DNA from: Elusimicrobia bacterium UBA5214
GTDB lineage: Bacteria > Elusimicrobiota > UBA5214
Assembly (NCBI GenBank): GCA_002412545.1
Contig: DHVG01000013.1
Location: 129,315 to 193,314 of the forward strand
Direction: 5' to 3'
DNA length: 64,000 nt
Under the pieces are notes generated by a model. That model was given only the letters and a program-made list of their open reading frames with translations. It made no database searches and was not told the origin of the DNA. How positions within the stretch are numbered: position 1 is the first letter of the stretch; every line of letters begins with the position of its first letter. The position numbers and the translations under genes are program-made. This document shows, in pieces, positions 7,891 to 53,518 of the stretch.

Positions 7891-7937
7891 CCCTCACCTT
7901 TTTCCTCTCCCCTCGGAGGGAGAGGGTCGGGTGAGGG
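7891..7937. repeat. GC-rich nested inverted repeat (two-stem hairpin) just past the stop of the LamG/T9SS gene
   Basis: Outer stem ccctcacc (7891..7898) pairs with ggtgaggg (7930..7937); inner stem cctctccc (7904..7911) pairs with gggagagg (7918..7925). Strongly GC-rich against an AT-rich background; no U-tract follows on the minus strand. Confidence 0.8.
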
Positions 7938-7945
7938 GCAATCTT

Positions 7946-8952
7946 TTACTTCAATACTACCATTTTCTTAGTGTCAACAAAACTACCGGCTTTCACCTGG
8001 TAGTAGTAGATTCCTCTTGAGAGTTCGTCACTTTGATTAAATACAACTTTATGCGGACCAGCCGTTTGCCACTCGTCAACCAAGGTTGCTACTTCCTCTC
8101 CACCAACATTGTATAACTTTATGGTTACCTGACAATCCTGAGCAACGGAATACTCAATTGTTGTTGCTGGATTAAACGGATTTGGATAATTTTGTCCCAG
8201 AGAGTTGACATCTGCAGTTGCTGATGGACTAACTACGATTGTCCGTGGCTTACCGGGTTTCACATTTCCTTCGTAATGTGCTTTAATTTCTTCAGCACTT
8301 AAAGCACGGTTGTAAACCCGAGATTCATCGATTGTTCCTTTGAACCAATTGTAATCTCCGGAAAGACAGTGTGCTCCAATTTGTAAAGGAACATCATTAG
8401 TCACTATATGACCTGAAATTAGTCTGTTGCCTGTTTCAACACCGTTTACATATATTCGCTCAACAGAACCATCGTATGTCCCAACGATATGCGCCCACTC
8501 ACCAAAGGTAAGATTAACTGACGAAACTATGTAATTCCAAGTATTAGTATAAAGTACTAACTGAGGAGTTATTCCATTAGGTTGCAACTCCAGTACATAA
8601 CCACTTCATCCTCCCCACTTTGAACGATTATTTGATGATCTCCCGTTGTTTTAATAGGCTTAATCCACGCTTCAATTGTAATTGCATCTGTAATATCGAA
8701 ATTACTCGAATCATTCACACGTACATAATCATCCACTCCATCAAAACTTAGTGCTTTGCCAACTTTACCATCTACCCAGGTCGCACCGTAGATTGTTCCA
8801 TCATTACTATTTCCTGAATAGTCATGGGCGATTGTTCCTTCCCCTTCATCAAAACTCCAGTAACCAACTAAACCTTCTTCTGCTTTAAGCCGCTGTGTAA
8901 GAAGAAATAGTCCAAATTCTACCATAACCAAAAATCCAAAAATTTTTTTCAT
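7946..8952 (-). pseudogene. secreted LamG (concanavalin-like) domain protein with T9SS C-terminal sorting domain, split by an apparent frameshift
   Basis: Track ORFs 8569..8952 (signal peptide, LamG N-half GLVGYWSFDEGEG...IEAWIKP) and 7946..8587 (LamG C-half ...GEWAHIVGTYDGS..., then NYPNPFNPATTIEY...YYYQV T9SS-type tail) overlap by 19 nt in different frames. The downstream ORF starts at TTG. Frame switch near 8587..8625 beside a C-rich run; could be a real pseudogene or an assembly indel. Confidence 0.55.
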
Positions 8953-9130
8953 CGGTTTCTCTCCCTCCTTTTTTAGAATTTAGCGACTTGAAAGTCAACA
9001 CTTCTTTGGCTTGTCCCGATGAATCGGAACGCTACCTCCCTTTGCGGACTAAAGTCCGCCATTACGGAAAGATAATAAATCTCAAAATGTCGACTTTCAG
9101 AAAATTTCCTTAAACAAAAAACAGATGAGA

Positions 9131-9183
9131 CCCTCCCCCCACCGCTTTGCTTCGCAAAGCGAAGCAGTGAGGATCAGGGTGAC
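9131..9183. repeat. GC-rich palindromic element, degenerate relative of 7891..7937, containing a perfect hairpin
   Basis: ccctccccccacc ... gtgagg...cagggtgac flanks; internal perfect hairpin gcttcgc-aaa-gcgaagc at 9149..9165. Another perfect hairpin gcggac-taaa-gtccgc sits at 9044..9059. Confidence 0.6.
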
Positions 9184-9393
9184 ACACTCAAGGATGGACA
9201 CCTAGCACTTTACCGCTTAACGCTGACAACTGTCTTTATTATACCCCCCCAGAAAATTTGCCAAGAGTTTTTTGAGAATCTTTTAGATTTGAAAAAATCA
9301 GTTGATGAGGTCTACTGAAAGGAAAACTAAGATGTGAGTCAGGTTGGCAAAGAAATTTTTAGACAGGTAAAGGACGAACATAAAGGATTAAAA

Positions 9394-10218
9394 CTATTCG
9401 GATAACCCACTTTTAATTTCTTGAAGAGAGATGCTTTCTTTAAGAATAAAGAAAAGTCCAAGGAGAGTAACTAAAAGAAAATTAAAGAAATGGTGAGTTA
9501 AAGTAAAACTTAAGGCAAGTTCTTTGTTAATTTTATAAAAACTTAAAGCCAACACACCAAAAAATTCCCATGTCCCGATGTAACCCGGAGAAGAAGGAAT
9601 AGTTACACTTACTCCTACAATTCCTAAAAAAAACATCGCCGCGCTAAAAGGTAACTTCATATTGAAAGCGAAAAACATTACATAAACGCCTGAAATGTAA
9701 ATAAACCAAAGAATAAACGAAATAAAAAAAATCTTTAATAGAAGGTGCCCTTGTCGTAAAACTTTAAATCCGCTCACAAAAGAATTAAAAAGTTGGACAG
9801 ATCTCTCAGCAAGTTTTACGGAAAAAAAAGAAATTATTTTCTTCCCTAATTTCTCAGTTTGTTTCTCAAACTTAAGCAAAAAAGTAAAAAAAACTGCTAA
9901 ACCAAAAATAACAATAACCAAAGCAAAAATATTTATCTCTTTAGGAAGGACAAAAAAAAATGAAATGATAAAAAAAATAGAAATTAAGAAAATTAGGTCA
10001 GTCAGCCGCTCTAAAACTACAGTAGAAAAGACCGTACTTTTACTAATTTTTTCTTTTCGTCCTAAAAAATATGCCTGGACTAAATCACCAAAACGAAAAG
10101 GAAAAAGATTATTTGCTGCCTGACCAACACAGGTTGCGGAAACTAAACTAAATAAAGGTACCTTTTTTTGGGGAAGAAGCAAGTAACACCAACGAATACT
10201 ACGGACAAATAAACCCAA
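9394..10218 (-). CDS. flippase-like membrane protein (lysylphosphatidylglycerol synthase TM-region family, UPF0104-like); true start probably upstream
   Basis: Multi-TM protein with FGDLVQAYFL and PSSPGYIGTWE motifs. Track start is TTG; the frame stays open ~50 codons further upstream (..KKALWFGLLISVFFLVLVFYKIDFKEFF..) with no ATG/GTG/TTG. Confidence 0.6.
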   Translation of the reverse strand: MGLFVRSIRWCYLLLPQKKVPLFSLVSATCVGQAANNLFPFRFGDLVQAYFLGRKEKISKSTVFSTVVLERLTDLIFLISIFFIISFFFVLPKEINIFALVIVIFGLAVFFTFLLKFEKQTEKLGKKIISFFSVKLAERSVQLFNSFVSGFKVLRQGHLLLKIFFISFILWFIYISGVYVMFFAFNMKLPFSAAMFFLGIVGVSVTIPSSPGYIGTWEFFGVLALSFYKINKELALSFTLTHHFFNFLLVTLLGLFFILKESISLQEIKSGLSE

Positions 10219-51673: not shown

Positions 51674-51680
51674 TTCCTTC

Positions 51681-53105
51681 TCAAATACTTAAATGTTTAA
51701 TTGTCCTCTCCGTAAGTGTATATTCATAAATGGTCCTGGTTACCACAATGGCAGTAAACATACTAATGACGATTCCTAAAGTAAGCGTTACCGCAAAACC
51801 TCTAACCGGTCCAGTCCCAAATTGAAAAAGAAAGAGAGCCGCAATCAAAGTAGTGAGATTAGAATCAACGATTGCTGAAAAAGCTTTTGAGTATCCCAAA
51901 TCTATCGCTACCCGTACAGTTTTACCCAGTTCCAATTCTTCACGGATACGCTCAAAAATCAGTACATTGGCATCTACCGCCATACCCAAGGAAAGAATAA
52001 TTCCCGCAATTCCCGGCAGAGTCAAAGTTGCTCGTAAATATGCCATTGCTCCTAAAAGTAAAATAAAATTCATTAAAAGTGCGATATCAGCAATTAGCCC
52101 GGAAAGATGGTAATAAACAACAATGAAAACGAATACAAACAAACATCCAAGAATTGATGCTTGTATTCCCTGTTGGATAGAATCTTCACCTAAAGAAGGA
52201 CCAATAGTTCGCTCTTCAATAATTTTTAAAGGTGCGGGTAAAGCGCCACTTCGCAGAACAATCGCTAAATTTTTAGCTTCTTCCAGAGTAAAATTTCCTT
52301 CAATAATGGCGTTCCCATCAGGTATTCTTGTCCGAATTACTGGTGCTGATTGAACAATATTATCAAGAACAATGGCTAAATTCCTTCCTACATTCAAACC
52401 AGTAGTTTGGGCAAAAATTTTTGCCCCCTCTTTATTAAACTTTAATCCCACATAAGGAAACCCGTATTCACCACCAATTTCCACTTTCACCTTATCACCA
52501 ATTAAGTAAGCACCGCTAATTTCCGGTGTCGATTTCAATAAATAATAACTTCCCTTACCGGGTAATAGAACATAGCCGGTAGGAATTAGTGTTTTCAATT
52601 CTTCTTGTATCCTAGGTAGTTCTTCCCAAGAAAGATTAAGTTCCCTTATCTTTTCGGCAATTTTGCTAATTGCACCACTATTATCCACAAGACGAAATTC
52701 TAAAAGTGCTGTTTTCCCAATTATTTCTTTCACTCGTTCTGGTTCCCTTACTCCTGGCAGTTGTAAAGCAATCCATTTCTCACCCTGTCGGACAATCATC
52801 GGTTCGGCTACACCAAACTGGTCAATTCGGTTACGAATAACCTCTAAAGCACGGTCAACCGCATCAGAAACGGATGTTCCCGGCTCCAGTTTCATTGTAT
52901 CTACTTCCAAAACTAAATGCATACCACCACGCAAATCTAAACCTAAATTCAAAATTTTATTTAATATTTTATCTTTACTCTTTTCACGCTGAATCCGTTC
53001 ACTTAAAGGTAAACGATACCAAGTATAAGTGGGATAAAGGAGATAAACCGATAACGCTAAAATACCTAAAATAAGAAATATTTTTATTTTTAATGAAGTG
53101 GACAT
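51681..53105 (-). CDS. secD: protein translocase subunit SecD
   Basis: Large periplasmic domain then SecD/F TM bundle (LGLDLRGGMHLVLEVD...); 474 aa. Confidence 0.9.
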   Translation of the reverse strand: MSTSLKIKIFLILGILALSVYLLYPTYTWYRLPLSERIQREKSKDKILNKILNLGLDLRGGMHLVLEVDTMKLEPGTSVSDAVDRALEVIRNRIDQFGVAEPMIVRQGEKWIALQLPGVREPERVKEIIGKTALLEFRLVDNSGAISKIAEKIRELNLSWEELPRIQEELKTLIPTGYVLLPGKGSYYLLKSTPEISGAYLIGDKVKVEIGGEYGFPYVGLKFNKEGAKIFAQTTGLNVGRNLAIVLDNIVQSAPVIRTRIPDGNAIIEGNFTLEEAKNLAIVLRSGALPAPLKIIEERTIGPSLGEDSIQQGIQASILGCLFVFVFIVVYYHLSGLIADIALLMNFILLLGAMAYLRATLTLPGIAGIILSLGMAVDANVLIFERIREELELGKTVRVAIDLGYSKAFSAIVDSNLTTLIAALFLFQFGTGPVRGFAVTLTLGIVISMFTAIVVTRTIYEYTLTERTIKHLSI

Positions 53106-53122
53106 CTTAGTTAATTTGGTGA

Positions 53123-53455
53123 TTAAGTGGTTGCCTGTTCCTCTGAACCGATAACTTCCGCTACTGCCGAACGGGTAAGTTCTATTTTTATTTCTTCAGC
53201 AATTTTTACTTCTAAAATATTCCCTTTAAGATTAACAATTGTCCCGTATATTCCGCCATTAGTCAGAATACGGTCACCTTTTTTCAACTCCCGTAACAGT
53301 TTTTGATGTTCGCGCATCTTTTTCTGCTGTGGACGGATAAGTAAAAAATAAAAAATAACAAAAATCAAAATCAAAGGAAAAAAACTGGTAAACATTCCGG
53401 CACCGGGTGAAACCGGTTGACTACCCTGGGCAAAAAGAAAATTAAACATTGACAA
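53123..53455 (-). CDS. yajC: preprotein translocase subunit YajC
   Basis: Single TM then conserved IRPQQKKMREHQ...LKKGDRILTNGGIYGTIV; 110 aa. Confidence 0.9.
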   Translation of the reverse strand: MSMFNFLFAQGSQPVSPGAGMFTSFFPLILIFVIFYFLLIRPQQKKMREHQKLLRELKKGDRILTNGGIYGTIVNLKGNILEVKIAEEIKIELTRSAVAEVIGSEEQATT

Positions 53456-53464
53456 CCTCCTCTT

Positions 53465-53518
53465 CTCCCCTCACCTCATCAGACCCCTCCCTCAATTGGA
53501 AGAGGGTAGGAGTGAGGG
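53465..53518. repeat. GC-rich palindromic element related to 7891..7937, between tgt and yajC
   Basis: ccctcac (53468..53474) pairs with gtgaggg (53512..53518); inner ccctc/gaggg stem. Overlaps the last tgt codons and abuts the yajC RBS (GAGGAGG). Confidence 0.7.

Follow-up and report, generated by a model that had tools for sequence, protein, structure and literature searches.

RESULTS

Three GC-rich palindromic sites in an AT-rich window

We analysed a stretch of 64,000 nt from Elusimicrobia bacterium UBA5214 (contig DHVG01000013.1, positions 129,315 to 193,314), hereafter the window, for three GC-rich palindromic sites, sites 1, 2 and 3, and for their relation to the bacterial repeat known as BoxC, PIT or TMECO. 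The GC content of the window is 35% and its long open reading frames (ORFs) all lie on the minus strand. The same DNA forms part of the 230-kb JGI contig 3300038308 Ga0134309_00005, and NCBI proteins identical to those encoded here bear the name Elusimicrobia/Elusimicrobiota bacterium. An initial annotation had described three related, very stable GC-rich palindromes just downstream of stop codons. The nested inverted repeats were indeed found at the places it gave (coordinates in Table 1), and folding of sliding 60-nt segments (mean −6.4, standard deviation 3.7 kcal/mol) placed the three sites first (−34.7), second (−26.4) and fifth (−25.0) in the window.

Sites 1 and 3 are built on a common four-block nested palindrome, CCCTCACC / CCCTCTCCC / GGGAGAGGG / GGGTGAGGG. 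A fuzzy form of this four-block pattern matched the window at these two sites only, and matched nowhere in 200 Markov simulations. For site 2, whose inner stem (GCTTCGC/GCGAAGC) is unlike those of sites 1 and 3, relatedness could not be demonstrated. Thus the repeat first sighted is real, with two members in the window instead of three. It does form part of a small interspersed family of GC-rich palindromes lying in the spacers of an AT-rich host, as had been proposed.

Table 1. Coordinates of the hairpin sites, their blocks and the adjoining yajC start region
Feature	Position	Strand	Sequence or remark
Site 1, intact four-block BoxC-like element	7891..7938		blocks given for + strand
Site 1, C2 block	7891-7898	+	CCCTCACC, then spacer TTTTT
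Site 1, C1 block	7904-7912	+	CCTCTCCCC, then loop TCGGA
Site 1, G1 block	7918-7926	+	GGGAGAGGG, then spacer TC
Site 1, G2 block	7929-7938	+	GGGTGAGGGG
Site 2, long hairpin, not demonstrable as family member	9131..9183	-	CACCCTGATCCTCAC-TGCTTCGCTTTGCGAAGCAAAGC-GGTGGGGGGAGGGT
Site 3, degenerate four-block BoxC-like element	53467..53518		fills tgt-yajC spacer
Site 3, first block	53467-53475	+	CCCCTCACC
Site 3, second block	53484-53493	+	CCCCTCCCTC, then loop AATT
Site 3, third block	53498-53506	+	GGAAGAGGG
Site 3, fourth block	53512-53518	+	GTGAGGG
yajC Shine-Dalgarno and start	53447..53460	-	GGAGG 53460-53456; ATG 53449-53447; adjoins site 3, not part of it

Site 1 begins 7 nt past the TAA of a LamG/Por_Secre_tail ORF (7946-8587, minus strand) and is followed by an AT-rich spacer of 700 nt. 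Its folding energy (−32.3 / −34.7 kcal/mol) lies well below that of shuffled controls (z −4.0 to −4.5), and after the stem UUUU occurs only at 10 nt, so that there is no U-tract. The only quadruplex motif of the window with four runs of at least three G residues is found here (7918-7938, plus strand, GGGAGAGGG-TC-GGGTGAGGGG), a sequence prerequisite for a triplex or a G-quadruplex. For sites 1 and 2, gene order beside hflC was found not to be conserved in relatives, and the NCBI contig of the same species stops directly past this gene. Separately, we observed that the ORF upstream of site 1 and its neighbour (8569-8952, minus strand) overlap by 19 nt and both match Laminin_G_3; they may be one gene split by a frameshift.

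Site 3 lies inside an operon-like tgt-yajC-secDF array. The stop codon of tgt (TGA, 53492-53494) falls within its central loop, and the last nine residues of Tgt (SPSLLPSSN), a tail missing from other Tgt proteins, are encoded by its 5′ half on the minus strand. No U-tract follows the stem. The folding of this site gains nothing over shuffles of the same composition (z −1.4 to −1.5), and hence it looks like a decaying copy. The Shine-Dalgarno (SD) sequence of yajC (called as 108 aa) sits 6 nt beyond the last G-block. It had been proposed that this copy contributes the yajC ribosome-binding site, a claim that we do not retain: the SD is outside the element, and the relative L006 has its own GGAGG at a junction devoid of the element.

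Sites 1 and 3 as probable copies of the BoxC / PIT / TMECO element

The BoxC element is a 45-55-nt non-coding GC-rich repeat made from CCCTCTCCC, GGGAGAGGG and GGGTGAGGG, to which the symmetric four-block form found here adds a 5′ CCCTCACC. BoxC, described in the 1990s, PIT (potential intrastrand triplex; Hoyne/Maher 2000) and TMECO were equated by Holder et al. 2015 (PMC4666352), who define TMECO as CCCTCNCCC-N3-6-GGGNGAGGG-N3-GGGNGAGGG and count 3610 copies across 262 proteobacterial genomes. According to the same study, TMECO is always intergenic, without orientation bias and without promoter or terminator activity; its triplex was formed in vitro and not detected in vivo, and local rearrangement between strains is raised near it (PMC4666352). 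The motif was also proposed to act as a G-quadruplex/hairpin switch (Kaplan et al. 2016, PMC5100583), and 100 CCCTCTCCC..GGGAGAGGG hairpins at gene 3′ ends of Enterobacter sp. 638 were presumed to be terminators (Taghavi et al. 2010, PMC2869309).

Several results make it highly probable that sites 1 and 3 are copies of this element (BoxC / PIT / TMECO, also HPGQ), propagated as a sequence unit. In BLAST against complete Escherichia coli genomes, site 1 gave matches of about 80% identity in 4367 of 5426. The same nested palindrome, CCCCTCACCC..CCCTCTCCC..GGGAGAGGG..GGGTGAGGG, is present in the phnL-phnK spacer of E. coli strain 042 and in the wcaJ-cpsG spacer of strain H3, while the K-12 hrpB-mrcB spacer, unannotated in RefSeq, corresponds to copies 1 and 2 of Table 1 in PMC4666352. 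A covariance model that included the window copies (R1) scored site 1 at 70 bits and site 3 at 60 bits. The model R2 was built without Elusimicrobiota, from three E. coli copies, Omnitrophica, Anaerolineae, two other genomes and one phage; in the 64 kb it recovered site 1 with 49.5 bits (E 8e-11) and site 3 with 34.5 bits (E 6e-7), the sole matches with E < 0.5. In Rfam, no family reached its gathering score in the window, and at permissive thresholds the three sites gave only sub-threshold chance matches.

Likeness to the described element goes beyond the three 9-mers, which come in the same order, CCCTCTCCC, GGGAGAGGG, GGGTGAGGG, and are separated by short variable loops. As with BoxC/PIT/TMECO, copies lie in spacers near gene ends (both copies of the window are located between genes, with site 3 overlapping just the last nine codons of tgt), are patchy among close relatives and have no associated transposase; E. 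coli too has the four-block form. What differs is the host, an Elusimicrobiota metagenome-assembled genome of 35% GC outside the 262 proteobacterial genomes, together with the length of the second loop (2 or 5 nt here versus 3) and a low copy density. The Enterobacter sp. 638 repeats, CCCTCTCCC-XX(X)-GGGAGAGGG, share the inner hairpin and the location at gene 3′ ends; they differ in being described as a two-block hairpin and in number, with about 100 copies, often in duplicate or triplicate (PMC2869309). What is new here is thus the host lineage and the uniformly four-block form, the kind of element being already known.

Gain and loss among relatives

Further copies beyond the window, as anticipated for a repeat family, were found in related genomes. 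At the tgt-yajC junction, relative L009 (Tgt 82% identical) carries an orthologous, better-preserved copy, whereas L006 (Tgt 73%) has no element and its tgt and yajC overlap. Relative L003 (Tgt 76%) has at this junction a different GC-rich insert of about 190 nt (L003 11130-11310), with several hairpins, which extends the Tgt frame to 436 residues. An additional copy occupies the DUF2905-spoIID spacer of L009 and is missing from that of the window; there the spacer, between a DUF2905-like ORF and spoIID (57330-57400), contains instead the heptamer CACGAAT four times. Finally, L003 and L005 share a copy upstream of queH, in a segment missing from the strain variant L004. Presence/absence variation thus affects three loci, namely the tgt-yajC and DUF2905-spoIID spacers and the region upstream of queH, and all four independent loci in this Elusimicrobiota clade have the symmetric four-block form.

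Copies can be read through as protein, with 9 codons at the end of tgt coming from site 3 and 14 codons from the L009 copy. This coding overlap of a palindromic repeat is the only likeness to Rickettsia palindromic elements. The latter are AT-rich elements of about 100-150 bp situated inside genes, and are unrelated in sequence to site 3.

Distribution across phyla and phages

Published surveys report the strict motif in Proteobacteria only. We scanned a species-representative genome collection and IMG/VR with the pattern CCTCNCCC-N3-8-GGGNGAGG-N2-6-GGTGAGGG and obtained at least 120 matches in each. By our own grouping of record titles, the matches listed include Alpha-, Beta- and Gammaproteobacteria, Thermodesulfobacteriota, Planctomycetes, Verrucomicrobia/Akkermansia, Anaerolineae/Dehalococcoidia, Acidobacteriota, Binatia, Rokubacteria, Omnitrophica, Vampirovibrionales, Leptolyngbya, Rubrivirga and Bifidobacterium.

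By our arithmetic, some tens of matches could arise by chance in 596 Gb of GC-rich DNA. Three properties of the matches listed show that they are not of such an origin. The two positions left free in the pattern are largely fixed: among 155 genome matches, 132 are of T/A type and 19 of the G/A ‘mismatch’ type of E. coli. The flanking bases (C or G) complete the 9-mers in about 90%, and 27 of 120 loci hold two to four copies. The fourth block is present in about 6% of copies among the matches listed, whereas all four loci of the Elusimicrobiota clade have it. When the third block was left free, TGA was found in 84 of the 153 matches listed and AGT in two, while for a purine triplex AGT would be expected to equal TGA. 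The kept ‘mismatch’ subtype and the TGA rather than AGT third block would be required by neither triplex nor quadruplex chemistry. In addition, no stem pair covaries in the alignment of copies. The lack of covariation, the fixed asymmetry of the third block and the occurrence of the 9-mers in many phyla and in phages argue for a copied sequence family, not for structural selection site by site.

In IMG/VR, two four-block copies with about 90% likeness to site 1 were found on a phage contig (3300031806_000077) that also encodes a major head protein (phrog_212, E 3e-79). An AGGAGG SD comes 6-7 nt downstream of each copy (2472-2516 and 4405-4449), and the translated ORFs suggest more related hairpins with G/C blocks elsewhere on this contig.

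Across this distribution the three 9-mers stay near letter-perfect in genomes of 35% to over 70% GC. One tentative and rather doubtful extension is that BoxC/TMECO is a single sequence-specific family crossing distant phyla, possibly on phages, and copied or recognised by some machinery, in which case the copies of the AT-rich Elusimicrobiota might be recent imports or be actively maintained.

Possible roles in termination, stabilisation or coupling to translation

A different explanation would be that the hairpins are selected in place, as terminators lacking a U-tract, or as 3′-end stabilisers or processing sites of the upstream genes. The position of site 1, only 7 nt past a stop codon and before a long AT-rich spacer, is consistent with this, as are the very stable RNA hairpins predicted for both sites 1 and 3. 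Scans for canonical hairpin-plus-U terminators gave no more than the background level in the window, so that another signal could serve, although this result by itself speaks neither for nor against termination at these sites; a termination role is presumed for the Enterobacter sp. 638 repeats (PMC2869309). Moreover, among the three-block copies listed with co-directional flanking ORFs, the C-G-G strand is sense in 49 and antisense in 21, a tentative bias derived from crude ORF calls (124 of 295 listed copies fall ‘inside’ an ORF) on copies that are not independent; no orientation bias was seen in 23 E. coli copies (Holder et al. 2015, PMC4666352).

Several observations nevertheless make this explanation unlikely. 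Termination at site 3 would shut off yajC and secDF, since the site is embedded in the tgt-yajC-secDF array with the yajC SD only 6 nt further on; a terminator role is unlikely there, while at site 1 it is possible if improbable. The folding of site 3, furthermore, is no better than that of its shuffles. Without a single covarying stem pair, the copies show a recurrent G/A mismatch type that is copied, not repaired. PIT elements were without terminator or promoter activity in E. coli (PMC4666352), and relatives manage without the element at the same junctions. That sites 1 and 3 are not textbook intrinsic terminators, as the initial annotation held from the missing U-tract, stands: none follows directly after either stem.

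Because site 3 and the two phage copies all lie 6-7 nt upstream of a strong SD, we also considered a pairing of the element with a downstream SD. This was rejected: an SD with a start codon and an ORF was found downstream in 12 of the 274 listed copies, against 19 of 274 on the opposite side.

Site 2 is probably a separate hairpin

In contrast to sites 1 and 3, site 2 is found mid-way in the 441-nt spacer before the LamG gene, with about 210 nt between it and the preceding gene and about 180 nt between it and the following one, and it is followed, 9 nt past the stem, by T6 on the transcribed strand (9121-9116). The description of all three sites as lying just downstream of stop codons and lacking a U-tract thus does not apply to site 2 on either count. 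A terminator scan flagged at this site only a small sub-hairpin with the T6 run. Upstream, a promoter-like TTGGCA-15 nt-TATAAT is present on the minus strand (9264-9238). Site 2 has no Rfam family, and its inner stem gave no match in one scan of viral sequences. Most likely, site 2 is a hairpin of its own, terminator-like and belonging to a leader or small RNA; for the segment 9112-9264, a leader attenuator and a small RNA of about 110 nt are both conceivable.

Alternatively, site 2 could be a third member of the family of sites 1 and 3, degenerate and with another hairpin in place of its original centre. Its outer arms are C-rich and G-rich (CCTCAC / GGTG and ACCCT / AGGGT), and in a bona fide copy of L009 (43 bits) the central loop is interrupted by about 40 nt of unrelated sequence, so that an architecture with a replaced centre does exist. 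We judge such kinship improbable: site 2 scored 7.5 bits (E 5.7) with R1 and 8.5 bits (E 3) with R2, which a dozen random places equalled, at least 8 edits separate it from the published TMECO motif, its block order is different, and it has a T-run after it and a promoter-like site before it, while real copies have neither.

Relation to REP elements and RAYT transposases

The resemblance to REP elements that was first suggested holds loosely. As with REP, BIME and REPIN elements mobilised by RAYT (Y1 tyrosine transposase), the copies at sites 1 and 3 are short GC-rich palindromes that are intergenic, are predicted to form hairpins at mRNA 3′ ends and are patchy among relatives; moreover, L003 encodes a Y1_Tnp + DnaA_C protein 1.4 kb from its BoxC-like copy. 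The sequence, on the other hand, is that of BoxC / PIT / TMECO, for which no transposase partner was reported (PMC4666352). We searched the window for a RAYT by tblastn with the Y1 protein of L003 and found no homologue (best E 0.16). In L003 itself (4334-5797), three copies (direct, inverted, direct) of another repeat, 25-33 nt long (ATTGGGGTCGTGTCTTGACATTTGA), bracket the Y1 gene (4390-5340), and this repeat was not found in the window. The L003 locus is thus a RAYT-like arrangement unrelated to the BoxC-like element. Copy number differs as well, with two single copies in about 81.5 kb against the high copy number and inverted doublets of REPs. On the evidence of the window and of L003, assignment of sites 1 and 3 to REP/REPIN-type elements is therefore very hard to sustain.

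Lastly, although CCCTCACC alone is mildly over-represented in the window (3 versus 0.77 expected; 3 reached in 4 of 100 shuffles), similarity of sites 1 and 3 as a chance by-product of GC-rich hairpins is practically excluded, being effectively refuted by the two four-block sites against none in the simulations and by the R2 E values.

Other palindromic sequences of the window

Additional palindromes were noted. The Tgt protein has a 7-residue in-frame insert, GCRTTAG (about 54338-54355, minus strand), otherwise found only in the closest relative, P0002, and its DNA contains a perfect 7-bp palindrome, AGTGGTT-gtag-AACCACT. QueA (54730-55806, minus strand) has an in-frame insert of about 14 residues (ETENACLPARQGERRTE) at 55290-55330, whose DNA is a GC-rich palindrome, CCTGCC-TGCCGGCGA-GGCAGG; the relatives L003 and L009 are without it, and L006 has a different insert at the same position. 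A further GC-rich hairpin pair, GTCGCCTCTTCGGCGAC and CTGCCGACGAGGCATGGCGGCA, lies directly downstream of queH (57766-57822) and is unrelated to the BoxC-like blocks.

DISCUSSION

The data presented here point to sites 1 and 3 as BoxC-like copies, one intact and one degenerate, in a lineage far from the hosts in which the element was described. A number of points weigh against this assignment or limit its reach. The strict published pattern is missed by 2 edits at site 1, on either strand, and by 3-5 edits at site 3. At site 1, G1 GGGAGAGGG and G2 GGGTGAGGG are exact, and the misses are the 2-nt second loop and a T for the first C. Only two copies occur in about 81.5 kb of the source contig, the window plus an extension of about 17.5 kb that added none, and the repetitiveness of the element within the UBA5214 genome rests on relatives. 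A copying mechanism or a trans-acting protein is neither known nor was found in this analysis. The negative terminator and promoter tests come from E. coli only, and any effect of the copies at the RNA level is deduced from their sequence. A phage route is speculative, given that Holder et al. 2015 (PMC4666352) did not find the BoxC/TMECO copies of E. coli associated with phages or plasmids.

With these points in mind, a simple scheme can be proposed for the BoxC-like copies. A BoxC-like unit would be copied or transferred horizontally, possibly carried by phages, and would land in spacers and gene 3′ ends, where it may later decay, site 3 appearing already degenerate. Once transcribed, a copy would close the upstream cistron with a hairpin of 16-18 bp containing interruptions; such an RNA hairpin (predicted at −32 kcal/mol for site 1) might at most slow 3′-to-5′ exonucleases or cause pausing, and would probably serve neither as terminator nor as promoter. 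In single-stranded DNA, the G-rich half could adopt a hairpin, a purine triplex or a G-quadruplex disturbing replication, and the local gain and loss polymorphism may thus follow from these proposed structures. Most likely, then, the copies behave as passive hairpins, in RNA or single-stranded DNA, with local indel instability.

For annotation, a practical point follows. BoxC-like elements are neither genes nor REPs, a terminator function is improbable for them, and the reading frame of tgt is artificially lengthened by nine codons through site 3. As to the assignment itself, the copies described here are most probably neither a REP/RAYT element nor a terminator.

To our knowledge, BoxC/PIT elements have been known since the 1990s without an accepted function or mode of spread. 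The letter-perfect blocks in Elusimicrobiota of 35% GC add to this puzzle, as do the same blocks in Omnitrophica, Chloroflexota, Planctomycetota, Verrucomicrobiota, Cyanobacteria and phage contigs, as seen in one scan of collections. Such a distribution speaks for a sequence family spread by copying and not for structures that converged independently.

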